A stretch of DNA of 60,664 bases from Candidatus Fermentithermobacillaceae bacterium (GCA_012512325.1 JAAZEL010000061.1:1-60664), one strand, 5' to 3'; numbered from the stretch's first letter, positions 2,912 to 60,642 are shown. The notes: a model not told the origin generated them from the sequence alone. Program-made: numbers and translations.

Positions 2912-3488
2912 TTGACCATGGCTCTACTGGCGGAAGAAGCTCCGAAAGGTGTCTTCATTTTCGCCCCTGAAATGCTTTGGGACTGCATTGTGATCTTGTC
3001 CTTGTTCATTTTGGTATTCCATTAACTTCACCCGGTTGCATTACGGCAACGTGGCAAGGCAGAGGCCCAAATGGATATACAGCGCCATAGCCCTGGTGGC
3101 GATGGTGCTTACATGTATCATTACTTTGGCTGACGGCGTCAACGGGGAAATTGCCGTGTTCTTGTACGATAACATTGCCAACAGGATTGACAGTGCCATC
3201 TACGCCCTCTTGGGTTTCTACGTGTGTTCAGCTGCTTACCGTTCTTTCAAACTTAAGAACCTTGAAGCAGGTATTTTGCTTGTGTCTGCAGTGCTCCTAA
3301 TGCTTGCCCAGGCACCCATCGGTGATGCCATGTTCCCGGGCATATCCAAGTTGGGTGAGTGGATCTTGAACGTTCCCAACTCGGCAGGTATGAGGGGAAT
3401 CCGACTGGGCGCAGGAATTGGAGCCTACGCTGCATCCATCAGGGTCATCCTGGGCCTTGAGCGCAGCTGGACCGGCTCGGGTTCATAA
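2912..3488 (+). pseudogene. Cassette membrane protein B, copy 1, frameshifted near 3010-3020
   Basis: SD GGAGGTGA at 2898 opens a frame that stops at 3023-3025. A second frame (…INFTRLHYG…AYRSF…MLAQAPIG…PNSAGMRGI…LGLERSW) is clearly paralogous to 56282-56914. Confidence 0.65.
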
Positions 3489-3505
3489 AGGAAGGAGGGT
3501 GTGAC

Positions 3506-4344
3506 ATGGATTGGGAGAAACTGCAACGGATTGACGTAAGGATCCTGTACGTGATCATCTTACTCTGCATGGCCATACCCATGTTCAAGCCGTTTGGCTT
3601 GCCTGTGGCTATCTCCGAGAACTCCAGGAAGGTGTACCAGGTCATCGAAGACCTGCCCGACGGTTCGGTGATATGGGGTCTCACGACACCGGCCCGGGAA
3701 ACGCTCCTGAACTTAACCCGATGATAACAGCGCTTGCAAGGCAAGCTTTCCGCAAGAACTGCAAACTGGTAGGGACTGCTTTCTTCAATGAGACTGTAGG
3801 GCCTACCTTGCTATATAACCACATAAACGAAGTGGCACAGGAAATGGGCAAGGAATACGGCGTCGATTGGGTCAACCTCGGGTACAGGCTTAACGCAGAG
3901 GCATGCATGAAGGTAATGGTAGACGATGTGTGGGAAGGCGTCGGCGGTGTTGATTGGACCGGCACCCCTCTTGACAACTTCCCGTTGATGCAGCAGGTTA
4001 GATCCATCCGCGATGATGTGGCCCTTCTTTTCGTTACTACTGTAGGAACTCCGGGGTACAGCACCTGGATGACATTTGTTACCCAGCCCTTGAACAAGCC
4101 GCTGACCGGTGGCGCGTCACTTACCATGTACTCCGGTGTGCAGCACTACATCCGGTCAGGACAGCTAAAGGGCTTCCTAGGCGGTCTAAGGGGAGCGGCC
4201 GAGTATGAACAGCTGGTGGGATACCCTGGTCAAGGGCTGGCCGGCATGGATGCGCAGTCTATGGGACACATTACAGTGCTCGTGTTCTTGATCCTCGGCA
4301 ATATCGGCTACTTCATGGCGCGCGGTAAGAACAGCCGGCGATAG
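3506..4344 (+). pseudogene. Cassette protein C, copy 1, with a 1-nt deletion frameshift at about 3675-3680
   Basis: ORF 3506-3724 joins ORF 3673-4344 at TGGGGTC. The joined protein aligns end to end with 55403-56272 (PGNAxE, EYGVDxVNLGY, LGGLxGAAExE, MDAQS). Confidence 0.8.
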
Positions 4345-4359
4345 AAAGGAGGCATTGCT

Positions 4360-4959
4360 GTGGAACAGTTCGGATATATCGTCTCCTCCATCTGCATATT
4401 GATGGCGTGGTCATACCTGATTAAGGAGAACGCCGTTTACAACTTCGCTGAACATCTCTTGGTCGGCATGGCAGTAGGCAGAGGTATTGCCTACACAATA
4501 GAAGTCCAGCTGAAACCCAGAATCGTCGACGGCATGATCGGCCAAGGGCGTTGGAGCCTCATTATCCCGGCTATCATCGGCTGCCTCATCTACTTCCGAT
4601 TCGTTAGAGGTTACGAATGGTTAAGTAGAATTTGTATGGCCGTGTGGATTGGTTACGGCGCCGGTAACGCTCTGGCGTTCAACCCCGCAACCTACATGCC
4701 GCAAATATTCGATAGCTTCATCAAGCTGGACAGCTTCGACAACATAATCTACTTCTTAATAGTCATCAGCGTCCTGTGGTACTTCATCTTCACAGTGCGC
4801 AAAGACTCAGGTTTCGGGCAGCAGTTTTCAAGGGCGGGCAGGTACGCGCTGATGGTAGCGTTCGGATCTGCTTACGGATCCATTACCATGTCATACTTGT
4901 CCTTGATCATCGGGCAGCTCGAGATAATCCTGAGGGATACATTGCATCTGGTGAAGTAG
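4360..4959 (+). CDS. Cassette membrane protein D, copy 1 (hypothetical, multi-pass)
   Basis: KENAVYNFAEHLLVG and LMVAFGSAYG match 54810-55406; SD AAGGAGG. Confidence 0.8.
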   Translation: MEQFGYIVSSICILMAWSYLIKENAVYNFAEHLLVGMAVGRGIAYTIEVQLKPRIVDGMIGQGRWSLIIPAIIGCLIYFRFVRGYEWLSRICMAVWIGYGAGNALAFNPATYMPQIFDSFIKLDSFDNIIYFLIVISVLWYFIFTVRKDSGFGQQFSRAGRYALMVAFGSAYGSITMSYLSLIIGQLEIILRDTLHLVK

Positions 4960-6600: not shown

Positions 6601-6731
6601 AGTAAAGTCAAAAACCTCCATTACTGCAAAAACTACACTGCAGCACAACAGTGTTATGGCCTTGAGCTATCCGCGTCCGGCAGGAAAACACAATGCCCCA
6701 CCAGAATGATGAAGCCCAAGGGGGTTCCAGG

Positions 6732-7379
6732 ATGATATCGCAAATAGTCATGAGCCCGATAGGGTTTCTTAGGCTGACTGTGGAGGACGGTCGCGTCACC
6801 GGGCTTGAATTCGTCAGAGGCGCCGACAGGATGAATCGGACCACCAGTACATCGTTTACTGGGCCATCTGCACGCCCGTCCAGAGGCTCATCTAGAGGGC
6901 CGTCTGCACACCTGCCAAGAGGCCTATCCGGTGGCCCATCTGCAGGTCAATCTGTATGCTTGTCCAGCGGCCCGTCTACAGGCCCGCGGGTAGTTCCACT
7001 GCACACCGAATCCTCGGCTGACGGGAACGAAAGGGACCGGAATGCTCTGGCTCAGGCAATCCAGGAACTGGACGCATATTTCGCAGGCCGGTTGCGGAAC
7101 TTCAGCGTGCCCATCAGGCTTACCGGAACGAGATTCCAGCAATCGGTGTGGGACGCCTTGCGACAGATAGGTTGCGGAGAAACCAAGACCTATCGTGACG
7201 TTGCTATGGCGGTGGGTTCCCCCGGGGCTGCCCGGGCTGTAGGAAACGCGTGCGCAGCAACCCCTGTGGCCATTATCGTTCCCTGCCACAGGGTTGTGGC
7301 CCAGACAGGGCTTGGAGGCTTCGGAGGCGGCCTGGATACCAAACGGTGGTTGCTGGAGCTGGAAAGCAGGCATACATAA
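6732..7379 (+). CDS. ogt: Methylated-DNA--protein-cysteine S-methyltransferase with an internal repeat insertion
   Basis: SPIGFLRL, GTRFQQSVW, ARAVGNAC and the active-site IIVPCHRV motif. Confidence 0.9.
   Translation: MISQIVMSPIGFLRLTVEDGRVTGLEFVRGADRMNRTTSTSFTGPSARPSRGSSRGPSAHLPRGLSGGPSAGQSVCLSSGPSTGPRVVPLHTESSADGNERDRNALAQAIQELDAYFAGRLRNFSVPIRLTGTRFQQSVWDALRQIGCGETKTYRDVAMAVGSPGAARAVGNACAATPVAIIVPCHRVVAQTGLGGFGGGLDTKRWLLELESRHT
6861..6980 (+). repeat. 36-bp (12-aa) degenerate tandem repeat inside ogt
   Basis: Units at 6861, 6897, 6933 and 6969 encode GPSARPSRGSSR / GPSAHLPRGLSG / GPSAGQSVCLSS / GPST. Confidence 0.8.
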
Positions 7380-7418
7380 GAGGCGCTGATCAAGATAAGG
7401 ACAAGCATATAATATGTG

Positions 7419-7442
7419 AGGGCCGGGGATCCGCCCGGCCCT
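7419..7442. terminator. Stem-loop between convergent ogt and the M20 gene
   Basis: AGGGCCGGG-GATCCG-CCCGGCCCT perfect 9-bp stem. Confidence 0.6.
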
Positions 7443-7489
7443 GCAATTCTTGATCTACCAGGCTTATGGCTCACAAAGTGAGCCTAGGG

Positions 7490-8905
7490 CTAGCTGAAGA
7501 ACCTATCCAACGGGAACTCCTTGCCCTTGGGAAATGGGCATTTGTAAGGGGAATCCTTGGTCTTTTCCCTGAATTCGTCCCAGGCTTTCTGTATGAGGCC
7601 TGGGTTTTCCACAAGATTGAGCCCGCACAAGGCCATGGTCTTAGCAGCTACCAGCATTCCCTTGTGGCCTATGGAGCTGCCTGACGAAGCGCAGTGTTGC
7701 CACGAATGCCCGGGGCAGCCAATGGGCACTGTTGCGGCTGACATCTGGACAGTAGGCACTATCCAGCTTACGTCGCCTACGTCTGTTGAGCCGCCGCCTG
7801 ATCTACCCTTGCCCCTTGGAGGCAACAGAGAGGTATGAAGCACTTGTTGCCTGAGATCAGGGAACTCCTGAAAATCCTGGCTCTTGTACAAGTTCTCTAT
7901 CTGGGACTTGTCGAAAGTCTCGGCCAGGCTCTTGGCGAATTCCAGGTCCTTTTCATCGAATTGAGGCGGACCCACCTGCTGCAAGCAGTCCCACATGACG
8001 TCAGCCAGAACCTCGTTGAGAAGCACCTCATAGCATCCGGTCAGGAAGTCAATCTCAAAGGCGGTTTCTGTCATGAGTGCAGCGCCTCTTGCAACGTTCA
8101 CAAGCCTCTCGTAGATTTCTTCCACCTGAGCCCTCCTGGGTGCCCTCACAAAATACCATACCTCAGCAAAGGCAGGTACCACGTTAGGTTGCCCGCCGCC
8201 TGAGGTGATCACATAATGGATGGTAGCGTCCTTTATCACATGTTCACGCAAGTAGTTGGCGCCCACGTTCATGAGTTCCACGGCGTCCAAGGCCGAGCGG
8301 CCGCTGTGGGGATCCCCTGCTGCATGGGCAGTCTTCCCGAAGAACTGGAACTTGGCTGAGCTCAGCCCGGTCCCGCTGCCTAGCCTGACGGTATTCATCG
8401 AGCCTGGATGCCAGGTGATTGCCACATCCAGATCTGAAAACAGGTTCTCCCTGGCCATATATACCTTACCCGCCAGGAGTTCCTCGGCAGGACAGCCGTA
8501 GTAACGTACGGTGCCCGGGAGCTTCCTCTTCTCCAAAACTTCCTTGAGAGCAACGGCTGCTCCCATGGCAGCTGTGCCAAGGAGATTATGCCCGCACCCG
8601 TGGCCGGGGCCCCCTTCTACCCTTGGCTTTCTCTCAGCCGATACTTCCTGGGATACGCCTGCCAAGGCATCGTACTCACCCAGAAATCCTATGTACGGCC
8701 TTCCTTCTCCCCACTCTGCCACAAAGGCGGTGGGGATTCCTCCGGCTCCCATTGTAACCTGAAAGCCTTGTGCTTCAAGATAATCAGCCTGCATTTTCGC
8801 CGAGCGCGTCTCTTGGAAACCCAACTCAGCGAAATCCCAGATGGCGTCTGCAATCCGTATGAGATCCGGTGCTTTGTCATCAATTGTCTTCAACACATCC
8901 GCCAA
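7490..8905 (-). CDS. M20 family amidohydrolase (AbgB-like)
   Basis: ELGFQETRSA, GEYDALAG, GHGCGHNLLG, CPAEE, GKTAHAAGDP and GSTDVGDVSW motifs. The TTG start at 8905 follows a GGGAGG SD. Confidence 0.9.
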   Translation of the reverse strand: MADVLKTIDDKAPDLIRIADAIWDFAELGFQETRSAKMQADYLEAQGFQVTMGAGGIPTAFVAEWGEGRPYIGFLGEYDALAGVSQEVSAERKPRVEGGPGHGCGHNLLGTAAMGAAVALKEVLEKRKLPGTVRYYGCPAEELLAGKVYMARENLFSDLDVAITWHPGSMNTVRLGSGTGLSSAKFQFFGKTAHAAGDPHSGRSALDAVELMNVGANYLREHVIKDATIHYVITSGGGQPNVVPAFAEVWYFVRAPRRAQVEEIYERLVNVARGAALMTETAFEIDFLTGCYEVLLNEVLADVMWDCLQQVGPPQFDEKDLEFAKSLAETFDKSQIENLYKSQDFQEFPDLRQQVLHTSLLPPRGKGRSGGGSTDVGDVSWIVPTVQMSAATVPIGCPGHSWQHCASSGSSIGHKGMLVAAKTMALCGLNLVENPGLIQKAWDEFREKTKDSPYKCPFPKGKEFPLDRFFS

Positions 8906-9004
8906 AAAGTATCGCCTCCCCTGAATCTGGCAGGACCCGTTAAACACATTTGGTAACCAATCGAGCCGGCAACCAACGCCTCGACATTTGGCCGGCTCCA
9001 TGAT

Positions 9005-9031
9005 CTTCTCCGTTGAACTAGGTTTTCCTGC
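9005..9031 (-). promoter_or_regulatory. SigH-like promoter (GAAG at -10)
   Basis: Minus strand GC-AGGAAAA-N14-GAAG. Confidence 0.35.
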
Positions 9032-9054
9032 ACTATTTTTGGTTGCGGACTAAC

Positions 9055-11178
9055 CTACGCCAACCCAAGCACACGGATGGCCCCTTGGAGCAAAGCAAGT
9101 ACGGTGCAAGCGAACGTCAACGGTATTATGATAGACAGCAGCGCCCACTTCTTGCTCCCAGTCTCTTTGTACACAGTGTAAACCGTGGTGCCACACGGAA
9201 AGTGGAGCAGCGCAAACAACATGGCTGACAAGGCAGTTGCCCACGTCCATCCGTTTGAGAACAAGACCGATTGCATAGCGCCCAATGAGGCAGGCTGGGA
9301 CATGGCGTTTTGAGAAAGATAGGCCATGAGGGCTATGGGGATCACAATCTCATTTGCAGGAAATCCCAAGATGAAAGCAAGCAGGGTGACACCATCCAGG
9401 CCCAGCATGAGTCCGACAGGGTTGAGTAAGGCAGCAGCTTCTCCCAGCAGAGTCCGCCCTCCGAACGAAGCGTTGGCCAAGAGCCACGTTATTGCGCCGC
9501 ACGGCGCTGCCACAAGAACCGCACGCTTCAGCACAAACACCGTCCGATCCTTGAAAGCCCGGATCATCACCTGGAGCACCTTGGGTTTGCGGTAAGGAGG
9601 GAGCTCCATCACAAAGGAGGACGGGACCCCTTTGAGGATTGTCTTGGACATCAGATACGACACAGCGAAGGTACTTAGGACACCCAAGGAAATAGAACCT
9701 AAGACGGCAGCTCCCGACACTGCAGCCGACACAGCAGCTGAGGTCGGCGCCTTCCGGATGCCGTGATAAAACATTGACCCAAACAGGAGTAAGCTTGGAA
9801 ACCGCCCGTTACATGGAACAAAAGTGTTGGTCAATATGGCAATCAGCCGTTCCCTGGGCGACTCTATGATCCGCGCGGCGACCACACCTGCGGCGTTACA
9901 TCCGAAACCCATGGCCATGGTCAGGGCTTGCTTGCCGTGGCCATGGCATTTTTGAAACAGGTGATCCAGGTTGAAGGCCACCCTGGGAAGATATCCCGCG
10001 TCCTCAAGCAACGTGAACATGGGAAAAAAGATCGCCATGGGAGGGAGCATCACCGCGGCTACCCATGCCACCGTTCTGTACACGCCCAGTACCAGTATCC
10101 CGTGAATCTGGGGGGCGATGCCCAAGTGCGTGAAGACAGAAGTCAGGTAAGCTTCGATTTGAGAAAACAAGGAAAACAGGAGGTCAGACGGGTACCGGCT
10201 TAGGTATAAGGTGATGAAGAACACCACGCCCAACAACGCCAGCATCAGGGGCACACCAAGCTTTCTTGAGGTTACAAGGTTGTCGATGGTTGCTGTCAGG
10301 TCTTTGTGTGGGCCGGGCGATTGTGAAACGGCGCGAGCGGCCACCCTGGAAGCTTCCAGGTAAATTTCACGGATCTGCTGTTCCACATGATGGGAATCAC
10401 CCATACAACCGATCGGCAGGATTTGCTGCTCCACATGGGTATCACCTATATGACCGATAGCTTGGATATGCTGTTCCGCTTTGCTGATATCATCCACATG
10501 GCCCATTGGTTCCGACCCTTCTGTATTACTGCAGTGCCTGTCGGAACCCCCGACGGCTCCCCCACCCTGTCTCGTCCGAGAATTCCCGGCCTTCCGGGCA
10601 ACAGATGCAATGATGTCCATGAGTTGCCTGAGACCTGTTCCGTCACGGGCCACCGTTGGAACCACGGGCAGGCCCAGCTCCTGTTCCAAACGCCCGGCAT
10701 CTATCTGAATTCCTTTGGTTGCGGCTTCATCCATGAAATTCAGGCATATCACGCAAGCCGGCGTTAGATTCCTTAGCTGAAATACCAGGTTTAGGTTTCG
10801 TTCCAGATTGGTGGCATCCACAACGCAGACGGTGACGTCGGGGGCCTCACTTACTATGAAGTCACGGGCGATCCTTTCTTCAATGGATGATGCGCGCAAT
10901 GAGTAGGTGCCGGGCAGATCTACCAAGTAATACTCCTGACCCTGAAACCGGACCATTCCGCAGAAGAGATCCACTGTCTTTCCGGGCCAGTTGCCGGTGT
11001 GCCTGTTCAACCCCGTGAGCGAGTTGAACACCGTGCTCTTGCCCACATTTGGGTTGCCTGCCAAAGCCACGACTACCGACCGGCCTCCATCGTCATTGTC
11101 CCCGATCTGATTGTCCTCGAGCCCGAAACCGCCCTTGCGGGCTGCCGGTTCCTGGGCGTTCCTCCCCACTATGTTCAT
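9055..11178 (-). CDS. feoB: Ferrous iron transporter FeoB
   Basis: GNPNVGKS, GNWPGKTV, DLPGTY, NFMD G-motifs, plus GYLPRVAF, GFGCNA, PCNGR and MELPPYR membrane motifs. Confidence 0.93.
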   Translation of the reverse strand: MNIVGRNAQEPAARKGGFGLEDNQIGDNDDGGRSVVVALAGNPNVGKSTVFNSLTGLNRHTGNWPGKTVDLFCGMVRFQGQEYYLVDLPGTYSLRASSIEERIARDFIVSEAPDVTVCVVDATNLERNLNLVFQLRNLTPACVICLNFMDEAATKGIQIDAGRLEQELGLPVVPTVARDGTGLRQLMDIIASVARKAGNSRTRQGGGAVGGSDRHCSNTEGSEPMGHVDDISKAEQHIQAIGHIGDTHVEQQILPIGCMGDSHHVEQQIREIYLEASRVAARAVSQSPGPHKDLTATIDNLVTSRKLGVPLMLALLGVVFFITLYLSRYPSDLLFSLFSQIEAYLTSVFTHLGIAPQIHGILVLGVYRTVAWVAAVMLPPMAIFFPMFTLLEDAGYLPRVAFNLDHLFQKCHGHGKQALTMAMGFGCNAAGVVAARIIESPRERLIAILTNTFVPCNGRFPSLLLFGSMFYHGIRKAPTSAAVSAAVSGAAVLGSISLGVLSTFAVSYLMSKTILKGVPSSFVMELPPYRKPKVLQVMIRAFKDRTVFVLKRAVLVAAPCGAITWLLANASFGGRTLLGEAAALLNPVGLMLGLDGVTLLAFILGFPANEIVIPIALMAYLSQNAMSQPASLGAMQSVLFSNGWTWATALSAMLFALLHFPCGTTVYTVYKETGSKKWALLSIIIPLTFACTVLALLQGAIRVLGLA
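10373..10477 (-). repeat. 45-48-bp tandem repeat encoding a His-rich linker in FeoB
   Basis: Units encode EQHIQAIGHIGDTHV / EQQILPIGCMGDSHHV / EQQI. Confidence 0.75.
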
Positions 11179-34041: not shown

Positions 34042-35025
34042 CTAGGCCTTAGCTTTCACATAAAGGGGTTTCTTGTCGAGCCGATGGCTGGCCCGGACGA
34101 TGCGAACGGTCCCGGTGGCGCCGCGCATGACGATTGAATGGGTCTTCGCGATAGAACCTATGTAGCGCACCCCTTCGAGGAGCTCGCCGTTAGTAACGCC
34201 TGTAGCCGCAAAGATGACGTCATCGGTTTTCACAAGGTCGTCCATGGTTAGTTTCCGGCGTACATCTGAAATGCCCATAGTTCGCGCCCTTTCCGCTTCC
34301 TCCGGAGACGTGGGCCAAAGCCTGGCCTGCATCTCTCCTTCGAGACAACGGAGAGCCGCTGCAGCCAGCACTCCTTCAGGAGCACCGCCTATGCCGGCAA
34401 GCACATCCACCCCTGAATCCTCAAAAGCCACGGCGATCGCAGGCGAAAGATCGCCGTCGGGAATCAACTGTATCCTCGCCCCGGCCTTCCGGACACTGTC
34501 GATAAGATGCCGGTTCCTAGCGCGGTCGAGGATTACCACCACAAGATCGAACACGTTCTTCTGGAGACCCTCTGCTATGCTGCGCAGGTTTTCCTCGATA
34601 GGCAAATCTAGGTCTATCCGCCCCCTTGCTTTGGGGCCTACTGCAAGTTTATCCATATACATGTCAGGGGCATGAAACAGGCAGCCTTGTTCAGCCACGG
34701 CTATCACCGCCATAGACCTGGGCAACCCCTTGGAAAGCACCGTGGTACCCTCGAGGGGATCAACCGCTACATCTACCCGCGGCCCCCGCCCGGTACCCAC
34801 CTTTTCCCCTATGTACAGCATTGGTGCTTCGTCCATTTCCCCTTCGCCTATCACAACCGCTCCGTCTATGTCCACCGTATCAAGGGCCCGCCTCATAGCT
34901 TGAACCGCTGCCTCGTCACATGCTTCCTTGTCCCCCATACCCATTAACCTGCCGCAGGCAAGGGCTCCCGCTTCGGTGACCCGCACAAACTCAAGGGCAA
35001 GTTCTCTTTCTATCTCTTTCTGCAT
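34042..35025 (-). CDS. glpX: Class II fructose-1,6-bisphosphatase
   Basis: VIGEGEMDEAPMLYIGE, VDPLEGT, PDMYMDK and GAPEGVLAAAAL motifs. Confidence 0.95.
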   Translation of the reverse strand: MQKEIERELALEFVRVTEAGALACGRLMGMGDKEACDEAAVQAMRRALDTVDIDGAVVIGEGEMDEAPMLYIGEKVGTGRGPRVDVAVDPLEGTTVLSKGLPRSMAVIAVAEQGCLFHAPDMYMDKLAVGPKARGRIDLDLPIEENLRSIAEGLQKNVFDLVVVILDRARNRHLIDSVRKAGARIQLIPDGDLSPAIAVAFEDSGVDVLAGIGGAPEGVLAAAALRCLEGEMQARLWPTSPEEAERARTMGISDVRRKLTMDDLVKTDDVIFAATGVTNGELLEGVRYIGSIAKTHSIVMRGATGTVRIVRASHRLDKKPLYVKAKA

Positions 35026-35096
35026 GTGTGTCACCTCACAATAATGCTGCTAATGCCAAAATTAGCGATATAATTGGCCGAATTCCTGCTCACGCG

Positions 35097-35128
35097 AGAG
35101 GAATTCTACAACGGTTCGTAGAATTCCT
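35097..35128. promoter_or_regulatory. Palindrome forming SigH-like promoters in both directions (opp / glpX)
   Basis: AGGAATTCTAC-N8-GTAGAATTCCT perfect 11-bp inverted repeat, read as AGGAATT-N15-GAAT on both strands. Confidence 0.5.
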
Positions 35129-35404: not shown

Positions 35405-37291
35405 ATGTTGATGAAAGCAGTAAAAAGAGTGTTGCCCTTCTTGCTGCTGGCCGTGGTTTTGCTGGCCGGATGTACACCAGAGGCTGAAGAGTCTGATACC
35501 CCACCCGAGTCCAAACTCAGGGAATCAGGGGACGTCTACAGCGTCTACTCAGGCGAGATCACAACTATCAACTACCTGGTGACGTCCACAACAGCTGAAT
35601 TCTCGGTGGCAGCAAACACAGTGGACTGCCTTGTAGAGTACGACAATCTGGGTATTGTCAGGCCTGCGCTCGCCGAATCCTGGACAGTTTCCGATGACGG
35701 TCTCGTATGGACCTTCAAGATCCGGGAAGGCGTGAAGTGGTACGCCTATGACGGTCAGGAATATGCTGATGTCACTGCCCATGACTGGGTGTCCTCTGCC
35801 AAGTACCTGCTCAATCCTGACAACGCCTCCGCAACTGCCAACATCTTCTACAGCGTGGTCAAGAACGCCGAAGAGTATTTCCTCGGCGAAATCGATGATT
35901 TCGAGTCAGTTGGCGTAAAAGCCCTTGATGACTACACCTTGGAGTACACGCTGAAACAGCCCGTTCCCTACTTCCTGAGCATGCTCACCTACTGCCCGTT
36001 CATGCCCGCCAACGGCAAGTTCTTGGAGGAAGTGGGCAACGAGCAGTTTGGAACCGATCATACAAAGCTCCTGTACTGCGGCGCTTACATCCTGTCAGAG
36101 TGGCGTCACCAGGACGAGCGGATCTACGTAAAGAACGAGAATTACTGGGATGCTGACAACGTACACATCAAGAGGATCGTGTCCAAGTACAACAAGGAGG
36201 CTTCAACCCTGGCGCCTGAGATGTTCCTAAGGGGCGAAGTAACCGACGCAAGCATACCCACTGCGTCGCTTGACGAATGGATGAACGATCCTGAGAAGGC
36301 CAAGATGGTCCGCCCGGCCGAAACAAGCTTCTACTCCTACTGGTATACGTTCAACTTCGACCCGCACTTCCCGGAGGAATACGAGCCTGAAAACTGGAAG
36401 ATAGCAGTCAACAACAAGAACTTCAGGAAGGCCATTTTCCACGGGCTCGACAGGATCTCCGCATTGCTTTGCTTGGATCCCTATGAGCCTGAAAGAATGC
36501 TGAGCAATACGATTACCCCGAAGAACTTCGTGGCTGCCGGCGGCAAGGACTATACCATGATAGGTGACCTCGCCAAGTGGACCGCCGGCGACAGCTTCAA
36601 TCTGGAGCTTGCCCTTGAGTGCCGCGACAAAGCCAAGGCTGAACTCGAAGGCAAGTGCAAGTTCCCGGTCAAGATCATGATGCCTTACAGAACCGCTGAC
36701 ACCTGGTGGGCCAACGAATCCCAGGTAGTCGAGCAGCAGTTGGAATCCCTCCTGGGTGAGGATTTCATCGACATCATCCCCGTAGGGTTCCCGGCCTCAG
36801 GCTTCCTGGATTCAACACGTAGGGCCGGCAACTACGCCCTCCAGAACTGCAACTGGGGTCCTGACTACGCCGACCCCGAGACCTATACAGAGCCTTTCTG
36901 CCCCGACGGGACCTACAACTGGCCCGAGAAAGCTACCGACCCAGCCTATTTCCTGGAAGACGGCAGGACTGTCTACCAGAAGATGGTCGACGACGCCAAG
37001 GCTGAGGTCATAGACATAGAAAGACGTTATGAACTATTCGCCGCGGCTGAAGCGTATGTGATCGAAGAAGCATGGGTCATACCGTTGCGTGTGGGCGGCG
37101 GAGGCTATGTCGCCAGCAAACTGGAACCCTTTGCTTCTCCCTATGCCCCGTTTGGAGTCTCCTCACTCCAGTACAAGGGTCAGATCGTGATGGAGGAGCC
37201 CATGGGCATGGAAGAGTATAAGGCGGCGCAAGCCAAGTGGGAGAAAGAGCGGGCTGCTGCACTCGAGGCAGAAGCTGCCAAAGGCAGATGA
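35405..37291 (+). CDS. oppA: Oligopeptide ABC transporter substrate-binding lipoprotein
   Basis: Lipobox LAGC, ALAESWTVSDDGLVWTFKIREGVKW and WGPDYADP motifs. Confidence 0.93.
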   Translation: MLMKAVKRVLPFLLLAVVLLAGCTPEAEESDTPPESKLRESGDVYSVYSGEITTINYLVTSTTAEFSVAANTVDCLVEYDNLGIVRPALAESWTVSDDGLVWTFKIREGVKWYAYDGQEYADVTAHDWVSSAKYLLNPDNASATANIFYSVVKNAEEYFLGEIDDFESVGVKALDDYTLEYTLKQPVPYFLSMLTYCPFMPANGKFLEEVGNEQFGTDHTKLLYCGAYILSEWRHQDERIYVKNENYWDADNVHIKRIVSKYNKEASTLAPEMFLRGEVTDASIPTASLDEWMNDPEKAKMVRPAETSFYSYWYTFNFDPHFPEEYEPENWKIAVNNKNFRKAIFHGLDRISALLCLDPYEPERMLSNTITPKNFVAAGGKDYTMIGDLAKWTAGDSFNLELALECRDKAKAELEGKCKFPVKIMMPYRTADTWWANESQVVEQQLESLLGEDFIDIIPVGFPASGFLDSTRRAGNYALQNCNWGPDYADPETYTEPFCPDGTYNWPEKATDPAYFLEDGRTVYQKMVDDAKAEVIDIERRYELFAAAEAYVIEEAWVIPLRVGGGGYVASKLEPFASPYAPFGVSSLQYKGQIVMEEPMGMEEYKAAQAKWEKERAAALEAEAAKGR

Positions 37292-46268: not shown

Positions 46269-46290
46269 GTTAATGCCCAGATAACCTCTT

Positions 46291-46406
46291 GTATCTTCTC
46301 CCATCCAGACTGTTACCGTCGGCCCTGGAATTCCACCAGGTCAACCGGTTTTTCGGCTCGCGGGCTTTTACCGCCGGTGAGGAATTGCACCTCGCCCCGA
46401 AGATAC
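46291..46406 (-). ncRNA. FMN riboswitch (RFN element)
   Basis: Minus strand GTATCTTCGGGGCGAGGTGCAATTCCTCACCGGCGGTAAAAGCCCGCGAGC...GGAATTCCAGGGCCGACGGTAACAGTCTGGATGGGAGAAGATAC. Confidence 0.97.
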
Positions 46407-46454
46407 ATCCATCCTTATCATTGTGAGCTTACATGCACCCGGAAGTCAAGGGCA

Positions 46455-47882: not shown

Positions 47883-48087
47883 ATAAGACACCTCCATACG
47901 AAGACTTTGCGGTACATGGGTATTAAGCTGTTCGGTCACCGCCGGCTGTCCACAACCGGCGCATCGAAACAACTTTATCCGTCGAACTATACCACGATAC
48001 CGGACCCGTACAAGTTCCTGTGCATGCCAAGTGATTTTGCTGCAGACCCTTTACTTTCCTGCCGTAACCTGATATATTCTTCGAAAG

Positions 48088-48352
48088 CCAATGATGGGGA
48101 CAGGTAACCCGCTGTAAGGCCCAGAGAGTCGCCGGCCGGTGAAAGGCGATGCCACAAAGCGGGTGATAGCACCCTTGAGGCGTCGGCACAAAGGGCAGTG
48201 CGTTAACGCCACAGCCTGAGTATGCTGGACCGGCTCCCTCCGTTATCCGGGATAGAGGCTTTGGGTATGCCAGCTCAGTGGCAGACCCAGGGCAAACCAA
48301 GGTGGCACCGCGGGCAGGCGTGTCTCGTCCTTGAGACGGCCTGCCTTTTTGT
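48088..48352 (+). ncRNA. T-box riboswitch, Ser (specifier AGC)
   Basis: Stem I with AG box (CAGAGAG) and GGTGAAA loop; specifier AGC at 48168-48170; T-box AAGGTGGCACCGCG at 48299-48312; terminator GGCAGGC...GCCTGCC plus T-run. Confidence 0.92.
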
Positions 48353-54652: not shown

Positions 54653-54757
54653 CTCATTGTTGATGAGGTTTACACGTCCTACAGGCGGGCAACGGTCATG
54701 CAACTACCCGTGCCCTTCAGCCAGGCACCATCAGCCCCTCAACAACAAGCTGGCAGC

Positions 54758-54790
54758 AAAAAGGCCGGCTCCGCAAAAGAGCCAGCCTTT
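54758..54790 (-). terminator. Rho-independent terminator after cassette copy 2
   Basis: Minus strand GGCTGGCTC-TTTTGCG-GAGCCGGCC followed by TTTTT. Confidence 0.7.
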
Positions 54791-54809: not shown

Positions 54810-55406
54810 TTACTTCATTATTCCTAGCCAGTCTCCAAGCACAAACTGGATCCGGCCAATAAGCAGTGCCATTCTTCCCATTACCGTTGTGCCGAAGGCG
54901 GCGCCGAAAGCCACCATCAGGACAAGCTTACCCAGTTGAGGCACGGAGCTCAACGGCCCCTTGATCTCCTTTGAGAAGAAGAAGTAGCTCAGAGAAGCGA
55001 TGACGAAAACCAGCAACAGGATGTCGTTTACGCTGCCCACACTCACGGTGGCTGCGATTTGCTGGGTGAAGTCGCCGTGGATGGCTCCTCTGACGGCAAC
55101 TCCCGTTCCTATACCGACCATGACGGCTATAGGATACCTGGCAACCCAAGCTATCTTCTTGAAGTACCTCGTATAGAGCAGCACGCCCAGCAGGATGGGA
55201 ATGATCCATATAAGCTGGCCTTCCTCCTGCATTGGCTTTGCCGCTGTGTCTCTGATGTTGCCCCATGCCACTACCACTGCGTGGCCGGCACTGATCCCTA
55301 CGTACAAGTGTTCAGCCGAACGGTATAGGGGATTCTCTTTCCACACGTGGCTTATTATAGCGAGAGTAACTAAGCCCGCTACCCAAATGCCAAAATCTAG
55401 ACTCAT
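54810..55406 (-). CDS. Cassette membrane protein D, copy 2 (hypothetical, multi-pass)
   Basis: About 6 TM segments; KENPLYRSAEHLYVG; paralog of 4360-4959; overlaps the upstream gene by 4 nt. Confidence 0.85.
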   Translation of the reverse strand: MSLDFGIWVAGLVTLAIISHVWKENPLYRSAEHLYVGISAGHAVVVAWGNIRDTAAKPMQEEGQLIWIIPILLGVLLYTRYFKKIAWVARYPIAVMVGIGTGVAVRGAIHGDFTQQIAATVSVGSVNDILLLVFVIASLSYFFFSKEIKGPLSSVPQLGKLVLMVAFGAAFGTTVMGRMALLIGRIQFVLGDWLGIMK

Positions 55407-56272
55407 GAACGCCCTCCCCTTCCTGCATGGTGTGTCCTATCGCTCATCGATTGAGCACGAGCTTCCTTTGCTCCGAAGAAGTTGGGGATATTCCTGAAAG
55501 CAATCAGAACGATAATCAGCAAGTGAGCCAACGACTGAGCATCCATCGCCGCCACGGCCTGGCCGCGTTTCTGCACCAGGATTTCGCACTCGGCCGCACC
55601 GGGAAGGCCGCCCAGTATTCCTTCGATCTGGCCTGCCTGTACATACGGTGCCACCTGGGTAATCGCTACTGCAGGTACGCCGGCGATAATCCTGGTCTTG
55701 TAAGTGCCGTATACCTGGCGGACATAGTCCTCAGGACCAGGCTGTCCAGGTGCGATGGTGATGATCATGTCGATATCCCCGGCAGTCTTGATACCCTGCA
55801 TAATAGGGAAAGACGAACTGGGCTTGCCTGAATAATCGGTGCTGAAGGTTCCGGGAATGTCTGTGGCGAAAGCCGCAACTGCCGCTTGTCCGCCCGCCCT
55901 GTAACCGAGATTGACATAGTCTACGCCGTATTCCTTCTCAGCCCAACTGGTGTTGGCAAATGCCTTGGTAGCCATCTCAGGACCCTGAACCTGGAACGAG
56001 ATGCCTATCACCTTTACCTGCTTTTCGGCAAGGTGTTCCAGGATAGCCAGGGCTTGAGGCTCCATTTCAGCGGCGTTGCCCGGTGAGTAGTCGAAACCGA
56101 ACACCACAACTGAACCGGGAGCCAGGCTGTCTATCGCCTGGAAAGACTTGCTTACCTCTTCGCTTATTGGAATAGGTATTCCAATAGGCTTCAAGAGGGG
56201 ACCTGCTAACACAACCACCAGAATTACATATATCCATGCTTTCGGTATCGATTGCAAGCGTTCCATTTGCAC
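55403..56272 (-). CDS. Cassette protein C, copy 2 (terminal TM anchors with a large soluble domain)
   Basis: Hydrophobic termini; DYSPGNAAE, EYGVDYVNLGY, GILGGLPGAAE and MDAQS; paralog of 3506-4344. Confidence 0.85.
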   Translation of the reverse strand: MQMERLQSIPKAWIYVILVVVLAGPLLKPIGIPIPISEEVSKSFQAIDSLAPGSVVVFGFDYSPGNAAEMEPQALAILEHLAEKQVKVIGISFQVQGPEMATKAFANTSWAEKEYGVDYVNLGYRAGGQAAVAAFATDIPGTFSTDYSGKPSSSFPIMQGIKTAGDIDMIITIAPGQPGPEDYVRQVYGTYKTRIIAGVPAVAITQVAPYVQAGQIEGILGGLPGAAECEILVQKRGQAVAAMDAQSLAHLLIIVLIAFRNIPNFFGAKEARAQSMSDRTHHAGRGGRS

Positions 56273-56281
56273 CCCTCCTCC

Positions 56282-56914
56282 TCAGTCATGAAGCCCCAGA
56301 TAGGTTCTATCCAATCCCAGGAACATCTTGACTGCACTGGATACCACACCGAGAGCGGCGCCCATCACGATGGCGCGCATACCTGCGGTGTTGGGTATGG
56401 CTTGTATCCAGTCAGCAGCTTTGGGAAAGATATCTGAAATGACGGAACCGATAGGGGCTTTACCTAGCATAACGATAACTGCAGTGATCAAGAGCACCCA
56501 GCTTTCGAGGCTCTTGGCTGAAAAGGATCTGTAAGCCGCAGTGACAATGTAGAACGCAATCGACGCGTACATTGTGGCTGAGGCAGGAGAAAGAATGTTG
56601 TTAAACAGAAAACTGTACGTCGGGTTATCTGTCCCGGATGCTATTCCGAGAACCATAACTACCAGCATCGAACCAAGCAACAAGACGCTGTAGAAAGCTT
56701 CAGGCTCACGCCTGGAAACGGCTACAGTGTGCCGCCGCAACAGGTTAACAGCACCGAGACCCATGGCGAACGCAGCTATGACGATACCCCATGACCTTAA
56801 GACCAAGCCCGATGACTTAATCCACTGTACCGACGGAGCGTCAGCCACGAAGAAGTCCAGTATGATCAACAGCGCGATCACTGTCATTATCAGCACAGGT
56901 AGATACGTCTTCAA
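56282..56914 (-). CDS. Cassette membrane protein B, copy 2 (hypothetical, multi-pass)
   Basis: About 5-6 TM segments; AYRSF, MLGKAPIG and IPNTAGMRAI; paralog of 2912-3488. Confidence 0.85.
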   Translation of the reverse strand: MKTYLPVLIMTVIALLIILDFFVADAPSVQWIKSSGLVLRSWGIVIAAFAMGLGAVNLLRRHTVAVSRREPEAFYSVLLLGSMLVVMVLGIASGTDNPTYSFLFNNILSPASATMYASIAFYIVTAAYRSFSAKSLESWVLLITAVIVMLGKAPIGSVISDIFPKAADWIQAIPNTAGMRAIVMGAALGVVSSAVKMFLGLDRTYLGLHD

Positions 56915-56944
56915 ATTACTTCACCTCCGAATGTTGACTAGAGT

Positions 56945-57730
56945 CTACTTCGTAATCAGCTGCAGAATTGCTTCGCTTCCGAAAGCCAGAAAAATGGAAC
57001 CTACACCCATCAGCGCGATCACAACTGCCTTGGCGATGTCTTGTCCCTTCACAACCGCCAGTTCAACGGGGTTCTGTGACAGGTAAGCGCTGGCCGCGTA
57101 GATTTCCTCACCGATGAGACAGTAGTCAGATGCCACGACCAAGAAGGGCAACTGAGCCACTGTGGCAGAACCGGTAACCTGGATGCCGCCTGTCTGGGCG
57201 CCTGCTTCCGTAAGCAAGAGCGCTTCCGCCAACCATGATCCAATCATGATGTTGGCAGCTACCTGTTCGCGGTGCATGATGCCTACGGCAGCGGCAGCGT
57301 ATGCGAACTGTTCCGCACCGATAAAACGGACCATTTCGCCTCTGTACCGGTCCGGCTTGCCTTCTTCCAGAAAACTCTGCTTAACGACCTCTTCCGCAAC
57401 CACATAAACGTCAGGTTTCATAATGGTAGTCACCAGGTCAGTGTCATACCTGGCACACAGTTTCGCAACGTAAGACAGCACCGAGAGTCCTGCCAGAGTC
57501 TGAGCTGAACGCTCGTGGGTAAGTTCTATGATGCCGGGGCTGAAGTGGACAGGGCGTCCTACCTCTGTAGCCCTTCCCACTGCTTCTTCAATGGCATCCA
57601 GTGCGGGCAGCCTTCGGATTTGCGGTACGTTACCTCTTCTCGCTTGACGAATGCAGCACACGAACAGAACAAGCAATAAGAAGAGTGATGCAAAGGAGAA
57701 TTGTTTGCCTAGTTCTATCAACACGTACAC
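56945..57730 (-). CDS. Cassette protein A, DUF6754-like
   Basis: IRRLPALDAIEEAVGRATEVGRPVHF, QFAYAAAAVG and IGEEIYAASAYLS. Family recalled from memory; HMM confirmation needed. Confidence 0.72.
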   Translation of the reverse strand: MYVLIELGKQFSFASLFLLLVLFVCCIRQARRGNVPQIRRLPALDAIEEAVGRATEVGRPVHFSPGIIELTHERSAQTLAGLSVLSYVAKLCARYDTDLVTTIMKPDVYVVAEEVVKQSFLEEGKPDRYRGEMVRFIGAEQFAYAAAAVGIMHREQVAANIMIGSWLAEALLLTEAGAQTGGIQVTGSATVAQLPFLVVASDYCLIGEEIYAASAYLSQNPVELAVVKGQDIAKAVVIALMGVGSIFLAFGSEAILQLITK

Positions 57731-57856
57731 CTCCTGGGATGCTCGAACGTTTGACCGGCTCTACAGCAACGAGAACTCTTGTCACGCTCCAGATCCTGCC
57801 TTATATTCACGTTTTACCGCCCCCTCCTCATTACTGAGCAACATGCCCAACAATGA

Positions 57857-57885
57857 GTATTCTAGATCCGTCTGTGAAGTCCTTC
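57857..57885 (-). promoter_or_regulatory. SigH-like promoter of cassette copy 2
   Basis: Minus strand GA-AGGACTT-N14-GAAT. Confidence 0.5.
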
Positions 57886-58170
57886 ATAAATGAGTCGTTG
57901 ATATGAGCATATTTTTCCCAAACTGATGTCCGACTGCAGTCTCTATTGTACAATAAGCACAAGGGACAAACCCATGTCAGTTTAGCCCTAAACTGCTGCT
58001 AGACGCATGAATCGCTTGTTATTGCCGCGTATGGTACTAGTTTCTCTGTGTGATTGCCCCACCGACTGATCTCCTTACCAACTGCTTTACCTGTGGGAAC
58101 TGTGTCAGGGGATTGGCAGACTTCCCTGGATGGTCTACCATGGTTGTGAGCAACGTAGCGGAGGTGCACA

Positions 58171-60385: not shown

Positions 60386-60462
60386 TGGTGGGCGGTGAGG
60401 GACTTGAACCCCCGGCCTCTTGCATGGCAAGCAAGCGCTCTGACCAACTGAGCTAACCGCCC
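60386..60462 (-). tRNA. tRNA with anticodon GCC (Gly) on a tRNA-Val(GAC)-type body
   Basis: Full cloverleaf GGGCGGT/ACCGCCC, A73, CCA; anticodon arm CTTGC-TTGCCAT-GCAAG. Confidence 0.9.
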
Positions 60463-60469
60463 GCATCGC

Positions 60470-60543
<74 letters not shown>

Positions 60544-60567
60544 ATGTGTCTACCCTAAAGCTAAGAA

Positions 60568-60642
60568 TGGAGCGGAAGACGGGATTTGAACCCGCGGCCC
60601 TCGCCTTGGCAAGGCGATGCTCTACCACTGAGCTACTTCCGC
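60568..60642 (-). tRNA. tRNA-Gly(GCC)
   Basis: GCGGAAGTAGCTCAGTGGTAGAGCATCGCCTTGCCAAGGCGA...TTCCGCTCCA; canonical C2:G71 and U73. Confidence 0.97.

Follow-up and report, generated by a model that had tools for sequence, protein, structure and literature searches.

In Escherichia coli, AbgT is a dedicated transporter that is paired with the M20 amidohydrolases AbgA and AbgB, and an importer gene thus sits beside TIGR01891-type M20 genes whose products cleave the imported amide. The tripartite ATP-independent periplasmic (TRAP) transporter DctPQM and the tripartite tricarboxylate transporter (TTT) TctABC combine several small membrane subunits with a binding component on the outside and have no ATPase; multiple paralogous systems occur per genome, and genes for catabolic enzymes adjoin them. 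Here we present ABCD, a set of four membrane-protein genes that recalls both arrangements, and for which TRAP and TTT are a working analogy only. The genes lie in a stretch of DNA of 60,664 nucleotides (nt) from Candidatus Fermentithermobacillaceae bacterium (GCA_012512325.1, JAAZEL010000061.1:1-60664), which was analysed as a whole and is called the window below. In the order in which they are read, the four genes are:

57730 to 56945, minus strand: gene A, 261 amino acids (aa), a DUF6754 protein
56914 to 56282, minus strand: gene B, 210 aa, about six transmembrane (TM) helices
56272 to 55403, minus strand: gene C, 289 aa from a GTG start, a TM helix at each end
55406 to 54810, minus strand: gene D, 198 aa, a six-helix membrane protein

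All four open reading frames (ORFs) are co-directional and lie head to tail, with gaps of 30 nt between A and B, 9 nt between B and C, and -4 nt between C and D. Their coordinates confirm the four-gene operon that a preliminary description of the window, made from the sequence alone, had placed at 54810-57885 with these same gaps. The start of D overlaps the stop of C (ATGA), and a GGAGG-type ribosome-binding site stands before each of the four genes. Since close homologues of C are 286-287 aa long, its start is more likely the ATG at 56266 (287 aa), in which case the gap between B and C would be 15 nt.

The same arrangement is found far beyond this organism. A scan of one genome per GTDB species returned at least 584 loci with a relative of C, and the best 80 of these all come from metagenome-assembled genomes (MAGs) or assemblies of uncultured lineages, with labels that include Bacillota (among them Fermentithermobacillaceae), Stahlbacteria, WOR-3, Eisenbacteria, Zixibacteria, Ignavibacteria, Marinimicrobia, BRC1/Sumerlaeota, Cloacimonadota, Latescibacteria, Coatesbacteria and Bathyarchaeia, among others. 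The closest relative among the matches listed belongs to a Bacillota MAG, at 90% identity, which places the window in an uncultured Bacillota of digesters. Across very distant lineages the order A-B-C-D holds in 86 of 86 loci wherever the contig permits, with gaps that are short or overlapping, and this answers the call in the preliminary description for a neighbourhood survey of an invariant four-gene order. Two or three complete cassettes, mostly head to tail, occur in 12 of 83 loci, several MAGs carry cassettes on several contigs, and in the tandem repeats all four genes are duplicated each time. No natural gene fusion among A-D was seen at the fetched loci, the long 'C' of one of them (L040) being the result of an unrelated C-terminal extension. 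A, B, C and D are one obligate unit, inherited and duplicated together, and because they behave as a unit in both respects we infer that their products are subunits of one physical complex, this joint behaviour being an indirect argument but the strongest one available. An origin as a defence system or a mobile element was considered and rejected, as A-D have no PADLOC match and no relative was found on IMG/VR viral contigs.

Only one of the four proteins has a counterpart in Pfam. A matches DUF6754 (PF20539) with 280.8 bits and E=1.1e-83, well above the gathering score of 27 bits that defines membership, and its residues 9-257 align to profile positions 10-255 of 257, which is the full length; all six of the longer A homologues that were tested match as well (E from 1e-108 to 1e-123). 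In the library of papers that was searched none is on DUF6754, and searches for GlmL and Fermentithermobacillus gave no relevant result. The family was known before only as a domain of unknown function, and its invariant partnership with B, C and D is newly established here. B, C and D have no match in Pfam, NCBIfam (for B and D nothing at E<=1) or PADLOC, and the Pfam and Foldseek check that had been proposed for each subunit thus leaves DUF6754 as the only match, with no specific relative for the structure models of C and D. A-D are traceable to no characterised family by sequence, and C and D to none by predicted structure either, and we rate ABCD as new at the level of protein families and of system architecture, with the fold comparison made on the models of C and D.

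A has TM helices at 9-27 and 232-250 and a core of about 200 aa between them. The earlier picture of a TM-anchored protein with a conserved soluble core therefore stands, except that the anchor is at both ends, as it is in C. Topology was read from charge statistics over 88-95 family members. In the A family there are 4.8 lysine or arginine residues (K/R) in the 15 residues after the first helix, TM1, against 1.0 in the C-terminal tail, and in the A proteins of diderm phyla TM1 is preceded by an extra signal anchor and by some 130 residues that lie outside and are fibronectin type III (FN3)-like or rich in proline and alanine. Because of this charge bias and of the outside segment that precedes the same helix, the conserved DUF6754 core of A is predicted to be cytoplasmic. 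Examples of A proteins with extra outside segments are encoded at 6689-7978 of locus L019 and at 8047-9279 of locus L053. A is the most conserved subunit, with a mean pairwise identity of 43.6% over 82 cassettes, and the residues kept in at least 99% of its members include R39, G52, R53, E56, G58, G66, G164, E169, E175, D202, Y203, E209 and D231; the charged residues D231 and K234 are conserved at or inside a TM segment.

In the other bitopic subunit, C, a TM helix at the N-terminal end is followed by a six-stranded, Rossmann-like alpha/beta domain some 200 aa in size and then by a C-terminal helix of 45 residues. Its AlphaFold2 (AF2) model (pLDDT 94.4, pTM 0.86), together with the TM prediction, bears out the claim that C is doubly anchored around a large soluble domain. 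A Foldseek search of the PDB with this model gave generic Rossmann matches only, with a TM-score of about 0.3 and no specific relative, and against PDB sequences there was no match for C, singly or as a profile, nor for A singly. A word-indexed search found about 90 clusters of C homologues. The short N-terminus of C (consensus D-R-R) and its C-terminal tail are both rich in K/R, and for this reason the Rossmann-like domain is predicted to be extracytoplasmic. C is the least conserved of the subunits (37.6% mean pairwise identity) and usually the most divergent between tandem paralogous cassettes, A being the most conserved there too; it keeps as invariant residues G116, D118, G123, D146 and E230, and the charged or polar residues H250 and N261 are conserved at or inside a TM segment. 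The predicted outward face of C and its greatest divergence would fit a binding or specificity subunit. An hhalign comparison of A with C gave a co-linear alignment of 87 columns from just after TM1 (P=0.0098, against 0.08-0.09 for reversed controls), a weak hint that the two may be homologous. As a side observation, the N-terminus of the C family has the consensus (E/D)(K/R)LxxI-D-R-R-I-I-F followed by the TM helix (residues 4-16 of the window C); the R-R pair, reminiscent of the twin-arginine motif, is present in 79 of 95 family members, and the window C has P-K-A at this place.

B and D are polytopic proteins with conserved arginine, asparagine, glutamate and glutamine residues. Loop charges predict about six TM helices for B with both termini inside, and six helices for D with both termini outside. 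There is no conserved cysteine in B or D, and no conserved cysteine or histidine that could serve cofactors. A profile search with B of 1.84 billion representatives returned 3156 representatives of 50%-identity clusters at E<=1e-3, the best 150 of which are all clear family members and offer no bridge from B to an annotated family. D has 3397 homologous clusters, all unnamed. Among the matches listed, the source names of homologues are all 'hypothetical protein' or a placeholder but three, which are isolated JGI automatic labels on B homologues (MnhG subunit, uncharacterized membrane protein, YhgE family). Neither the B profile nor the D profile matches a PDB sequence, and the AF2 model of D (pLDDT 78, pTM 0.45), in which three of the six helices are 37-43 residues long, retrieves no specific relative from the PDB by Foldseek (best E=0.78). 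In some B homologues (P0309, P0330) the loop that joins TM3 to TM4, predicted to lie outside, contains an inserted WD40 propeller or TPR repeats. Most of the motifs that the preliminary description had called conserved do fall on family-wide columns: AYRSF, in which R129 and F131 of B are invariant; the AGMR part of PNxAGMR, with R180 of B kept in 99% of members; VNLGY (G116-G123); GAAEYE; MDAQS; and KEN..AEH, from the D motif KENxxYxxAEH with N25 and E32. PGNAxE, however, is conserved only locally. Homology between B and D as an inverted pair was tried and rejected (hhalign P=0.027, against 0.015-0.019 for reversed-sequence controls), and what remains of it is only their opposite predicted topology.

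The neighbours of the cassette were surveyed by clustering the flanking ORFs of all loci and then naming the recurrent clusters; related genomes are not independent samples, and the counts that follow overstate the number of independent events. A gene for an M20, Amidohydro_3 (D-aminoacylase-like) or M81 (MlrC-like) protein lies within 3 genes of the cassette in 11 of 25 Bacillota-labelled and 2 of 3 Bathyarchaeia-labelled loci. These hydrolase-linked loci (13 of 28) vary in the position and orientation of the hydrolase gene and include cassettes only about 40% identical to that of the window. Varied arrangements of this kind, here and in the other lineages described below, favour selection over mere inherited synteny. 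Homologues of the window M20 protein (cluster 14) are present in 7 loci, in 6 of which no more than 3 genes separate them from the cassette, and two loci (L005 and L006) have two Peptidase_C26 genes directly upstream of the cassette. The 142 immediate neighbours include about 10 M20/amidohydrolase proteins and 5 Opp ATPases, and an Opp-type gene is found within 3 genes of the cassette in 7 of 83 loci. In Marinimicrobia, a seven-gene block, made up of ABCD and the trio of genes described below, lies between OppA-B-C-like genes and an Opp ATPase gene, which is followed by genes for an aldehyde dehydrogenase and a class-III aminotransferase. In two genomes of Ozemobacter, an SBP_bac_5 gene and two Opp ATPase genes stand directly upstream of the ABCD block (L001 1737-5430), with no Opp permease gene within 8 kb of it. 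The block of Eisenbacteria is placed between glycine-cleavage genes and a lipoate ligase gene, while Stahlbacteria and WOR-3 have a fixed downstream set of a DUF4388 protein, unknown proteins and ExbB/ExbD-like proteins, the last named from their sequence only. The neighbours outside Bacillota and Bathyarchaeia also point to amino-acid and peptide catabolism.

A further set of recurrent neighbours is a trio of genes whose products are called c4, c5 and c7. The first, c4, is a 605-aa GlmL-family protein with a C-terminal extension, which matches Pfam MutL with E=3e-124 and the NCBIfam GlmL model below both equivalog cut-offs. The second, c5, has 376 aa and an N-terminal barrel-sandwich domain of the RnfC_N/NQRA_N type that scores far below the family cut-offs; it is extremely conserved, with a mean column identity of 66% over 12 aligned loci. 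The third, c7, is a small protein of about 130 aa. None of the three scores above a curated cut-off of NCBIfam, and the GlmL-family protein and c5 have no meaningful match among PDB sequences. The order of the genes varies (7-4-5-ABCD, 4-5-7-ABCD, ABCD-7-4-5, ABCD-4-5) and the spacing is operon-like. Examples of the trio linked to ABCD come from phyla of the FCB (Fibrobacterota, Chlorobiota and Bacteroidota) type, from Ozemobacter and from one Bacillota MAG:

Locus L001, 9583-12911: trio linked to ABCD
Locus L047, 4748-8058: trio linked to ABCD
Locus L052, 4807-8216: trio linked to ABCD
Locus L032, 3225-5572: trio linked to ABCD

The reading that we favour, tentatively and at somewhat less than an even chance, is that ABCD is a new system of several subunits which takes up peptide or amide compounds; that it transports at all, and with it the direction, the substrate and the energy source, is what we infer from the architecture and the neighbours described above. 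ABCD would import small nitrogen-containing organic solutes, such as short peptides, N-acyl or gamma-glutamyl amino acids and related amides. Facing outward and held in place by its two flanking helices, the Rossmann-like domain of C would capture the substrate and set the specificity, B and D, with about six TM helices each and their conserved arginines and polar residues, would form the translocation path, and the cytoplasmic domain of A may gate or energise this path or couple it to cytoplasmic partners. Because there is no ATPase in the core, an ion gradient across the membrane would be the default energy source. Neighbouring cytoplasmic hydrolases, here the M20 amidohydrolase, would then free amino acids. 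The presence of two to three cassettes at some loci, together with the divergence of C, is typical of the copy-number behaviour of substrate-specific transporters, and the occurrence of ABCD on both bacterial and archaea-labelled contigs argues for a small-molecule rather than a cell-envelope-specific function. An uptake system would also fit the hydrolase, Opp and amino-acid-catabolic neighbours, as well as the origin of the carriers from anaerobic digesters, bioreactors and other anoxic habitats.

Several observations weigh against uptake. No subunit resembles a known transporter fold or family (by sequence for A-D, by Foldseek for C and D). The earlier proposal that C is the binding or gating subunit gains from its predicted outside position and its divergence between paralogous cassettes, but its domain is a single generic alpha/beta lobe and not a bilobed binding protein, and there is no periplasmic binding protein among the 50 Foldseek matches listed for it. 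WD40, TPR and FN3-like outside domains in some members meet no obvious need of a small-solute transporter, and A is more strongly conserved than would be expected of a mere gate. In Marinimicrobia the adjoining Opp-type set, of which a substrate-binding protein, two permeases and one ATPase are seen, would make ABCD a second and partly redundant peptide importer. The peptidase linkage, which had been named as a check, holds in Bacillota and Bathyarchaeia and is confined to them, the same hydrolases being neighbours in 0 of 55 loci of other lineages, those of the FCB type included. Last, in 20 of 46 non-Bacillota loci, and among the Bacillota in L032, the genes for c4, c5 and c7 are found no more than 3 genes away from the cassette, and such tight linkage to a cytoplasmic GlmL-family ATPase and an RnfC_N-like protein suggests a larger machine in many lineages.

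That suggestion leads to an alternative in which ABCD is the membrane module of a larger machine with the GlmL-family (actin-fold, hydantoinase-like) ATPase, the RnfC/NqrA-type barrel-sandwich protein and the small protein. The machine might represent a new class of transporters driven by ATP, or it might serve amino-acid metabolism as a membrane-bound enzyme or as an energy-converting complex, with the Bacillota partners encoded elsewhere or lost. Besides the recurrence of the trio at operon-like distances in changing order, and the matches of c4 to MutL and GlmL and of the highly conserved c5 to RnfC_N and NQRA_N, it would explain why the cytoplasmic A is the most conserved of the four subunits, as a docking or catalytic partner would be, and B and D (about 200 aa, six TM helices, opposite orientation) with the bitopic C superficially recall RnfA/RnfE and RnfG. 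Yet 63 of 83 loci, including that of the window, have no trio neighbours, no homologue of the GlmL-family protein, c5 or c7 is present within the 60-kb window, and B and D lack sequence similarity to Rnf and Nqr subunits, fold similarity in the case of D, and conserved cysteine or histidine. Known GlmL-family proteins accompany soluble B12 mutases, and because of this the linkage could also mean a shared pathway. We regard this larger machine as rather unlikely, and its most specific form, in which ABCD is the membrane core of an unknown class of transport or energy coupling that in many phyla is driven or regulated by the GlmL-family ATPase and the NqrA/RnfC_N-like protein, as quite improbable. 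Should it be true, a GlmL-driven ABCD would represent a mode of energising membrane transport unrelated to the ATP-binding cassette (ABC), P-type, V/F-type and phosphotransferase (PTS) systems, with a conserved alpha/beta domain on the outside, that of C, and another on the inside, that of A.

Two further readings keep the core and change what it does. ABCD might be an ion-gradient-driven or signalling complex that acts on extracytoplasmic macromolecules, for example as a stator-like energiser, a machine that handles proteins or peptides, or a sensor; its interaction modules would be C and those loops of B and extensions of A that lie outside. The outside domains of B (WD40, TPR) and A (FN3-like or rich in proline and alanine), the conserved charged or polar residues at or in the TM segments of the bitopic subunits (D231 and K234 of A, H250 and N261 of C), the lack of an ATPase in the core, and the ExbB/ExbD-like and outer-membrane genes downstream in Stahlbacteria/WOR-3 and in Eisenbacteria all agree with such a role. 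Nevertheless, A-D have no MotA_ExbB, ExbD, stator-family or PADLOC match and no output domains for signalling, monoderm Bacillota and archaea-labelled contigs have a minimal form that lacks the extra domains, and multiple paralogous cassettes with cytoplasmic hydrolase neighbours are atypical of envelope machines, which makes this reading unlikely. Alternatively, ABCD might carry peptides, amino acids or metabolites out of the cell, or act as a channel for ions or metals, with its hydrolase neighbours a coincidence. The structural arguments for uptake apply here equally, as the data fix neither direction nor substrate, and the invariant acidic residues D118, D146 and E230 of the C domain could bind cations. 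But catabolic hydrolases, Opp uptake genes and amino-acid-catabolic genes usually go with importers, and the recurrent clusters include no metal-homeostasis, biosynthetic or bacteriocin neighbours, and we think export or a channel very unlikely.

If ABCD does act as a transporter, then a family of multi-subunit uptake systems would be added to those described, and one without a subunit in any known class of transporters. Metabolic reconstructions of largely uncultured anaerobes, in which these genes are 'hypothetical', would have one gap fewer. A function could then be given to three protein families of considerable size, with more than 3000 clusters each for B and D, and a role to DUF6754. 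Should the linkage to the GlmL-family ATPase mean that the proteins form a physical machine, ATP would also be coupled to a membrane process in a new way. As an annotation rule, the invariant four-gene signature can be used even without a function.

The remaining features of the operon lie on either side of it:

57859 to 57883, minus strand: promoter-like motif AGGACTT-N-CTAGAAT (AGGA-N17-GAAT, 'SigH-like'), found by pattern match
about 54755 to 54790, minus strand: intrinsic-terminator-like hairpin after D, with a 13-bp stem, a 5-nt loop and then UUGCU (a U-rich tail)
54586 to 53357, minus strand: M20 amidohydrolase gene (TIGR01891, E=7.8e-57; Peptidase_M20/M20_dimer)

The promoter-like motif reads GAAGGACTT...CTAGAATAC at 57883..57859 and is kept in the closest relative (L007). 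The pattern AGGA-N16-18-GAAT has 16 matches in the window against 6.1 +/- 2.35 expected, a number that 0 of 100 shuffles reach, and judged by position several of the matches stand upstream of ORFs; it is a real, enriched motif in the window. The promoter type named in the preliminary description was well chosen in this sense. A consensus scan found no sigma-70-like site upstream of A. A second AGGA..GAAT match at 57828..57805 was rejected as a promoter, as its -10 part is not kept in L007 and an RNA contig spans the site. Further upstream, at 57945-57954 and some 60 nt from the promoter-like motif, is the perfect 10-bp palindrome ATTGTACAAT, which is conserved in L007 and may be an operator of the ABCD operon. 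Elsewhere in the window, and part of the same enrichment, two overlapping promoter-like motifs of the form AGGAATTCTAC...GTAGAAT lie on opposite strands at 35099-35128, between a divergent gene (34042..35034, minus strand) and a 628-aa ORF that starts at 35405 on the plus strand and leads a run of five ORFs whose layout, and only the layout, is that of an Opp operon.

The hairpin after D agrees with the terminator that had been noted at 54758-54790. Its centroid structure has -21.8 kcal/mol and the 73-nt fold has z=-2.06, and a strict consensus scan did not pick it up. The M20 amidohydrolase gene, correctly recognised before as adjoining the operon, starts 223 nt downstream of D. No Rfam element that could provide riboswitch or leader control was found near the ABCD operon or the second copy described below; an FMN (flavin mononucleotide) riboswitch (46289-46408, minus strand), a T-box leader (48082-48335, plus strand) and three tRNA genes (60389-60642, minus strand) are present elsewhere in the window and are unrelated to ABCD.

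Of the words sampled from the window sequence, 64-98% are present in 20 metagenomes of bioreactors and anaerobic digesters. Contigs of four biogas or digester metatranscriptomes match A-D at >=99% identity, although these are assembled contigs in which carry-over of DNA is possible. They span the junctions A/B (56729-56948), B/C (56108-56303) and C/D (55085-55485), and one extends to 57816, which is 86 nt upstream of the A start and downstream of the promoter-like motif. The M20 gene is expressed in metatranscriptome X25. It was rightly cautioned that the terminator leaves co-transcription of ABCD with this gene unshown: no RNA contig in the metatranscriptomes crosses the hairpin after D, and for this reason the M20 gene is probably a separate transcript.

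A second, paralogous copy had been reported at 2912-4959. Genes related to B, C and D do exist there with their motifs, but A' is missing, B' is truncated and C' is frameshifted, and the start given at 2912 was wrong, being in a different frame from the body of B'. The tblastn search and the ORFs give:

3018 to 4959, plus strand: degenerate B'C'D' remnant without A'

B' (3018-3476) is 37% identical to B in an alignment that begins only at residue 55, the first 54 or so residues being absent; C', 33% identical to C, is split over two frames (3506-3673 and 3685-4338); and D' (4366-4956) is 30% identical to D. No A' was found by tblastn anywhere in the window. The frame change in C' is a 1-nt indel near 3673-3685, beside a G4 run. 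Two explanations for it were tried and rejected. Contigs of the independent metagenomes X2 and X4, from different studies, carry the frameshifted sequence without gaps, and because independent metagenomes hold the identical sequence the lesion is fixed and not an assembly error; a programmed frameshift was set aside on reading the sequence, as the site has no canonical slippery heptamer. B'C'D' is a real, pseudogene-like remnant, and its decay is probably recent since it keeps the family's invariant residues. The remnant lacks A and therefore gives no information on a second working system in the same organism, although it still helps to pick out conserved motifs. The segments 2455-2498, 2663-2687 and 2868-2986 recur, about 92% identical, in a higher-depth contig of another organism, which diverges beyond them; this suggests a recombination or deletion scar at the 5' edge of the remnant.

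Compared with described systems, ABCD repeatedly shows likeness in layout and none in family. The preliminary description had seen no ATPase, EAA loop, PTS, TRAP or ECF (energy-coupling factor) signature, and indeed A-D match none of these families in Pfam or NCBIfam. For the PTS this covers EIIC/EIID as well as EIIA/EIIB. The S components of ECF transporters are 6-TM proteins of about 190 aa, much like B and D, but there is no EcfT (CbiQ), S-component or EcfA match, and the D model retrieves no S component by Foldseek. Opp-type ABC importers share the neighbourhood, since Opp genes recur near the cassette and the Marinimicrobia cassette lies between Opp permease genes and the ATPase gene; A-D, however, have no ABC_tran or nucleoside triphosphatase match, B and D have no BPD_transp_1 match, and most loci have no ABC ATPase nearby. 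The Rnf and Nqr complexes likewise have a pair of 6-TM subunits, each about 200 aa long and oriented oppositely by prediction, and a bitopic subunit with an outside domain, and in FCB-type phyla ABCD is even linked to a cytoplasmic protein with an RnfC_N/NqrA_N-type barrel-sandwich domain. Against this, there is no match to PF02508 or to the FMN-binding domain (FMN_bind, for C), there are no conserved cysteine, histidine or flavinylation residues, and the D model retrieves no NqrD/E or RnfA/E at E<=10 by Foldseek.

MotAB, ExbBD and TolQR resemble ABCD in combining polytopic subunits that have long helices with bitopic alpha/beta subunits, in having no ATPase, and in the conserved D231 of A at a TM boundary, but A-D have no MotA_ExbB, ExbD or OmpA-like match. 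ABCD also has four different subunits rather than two, with its bitopic subunits anchored at both ends and one of the soluble domains cytoplasmic. AbgT, for all the likeness of its gene neighbourhood, is a single polytopic protein of a known family to which ABCD has no similarity (no Pfam match). TRAP and TTT, the working analogy from which we started, have no Pfam or NCBIfam similarity to ABCD either, and none in fold by Foldseek with C and D. Their binding component is a soluble or lipid-anchored bilobed protein, whereas C is a single lobe tethered by two helices; their membrane part is a small and a 12-TM protein, whereas B and D have about 200 aa each; and ABCD has in A an extra, conserved cytoplasmic subunit.

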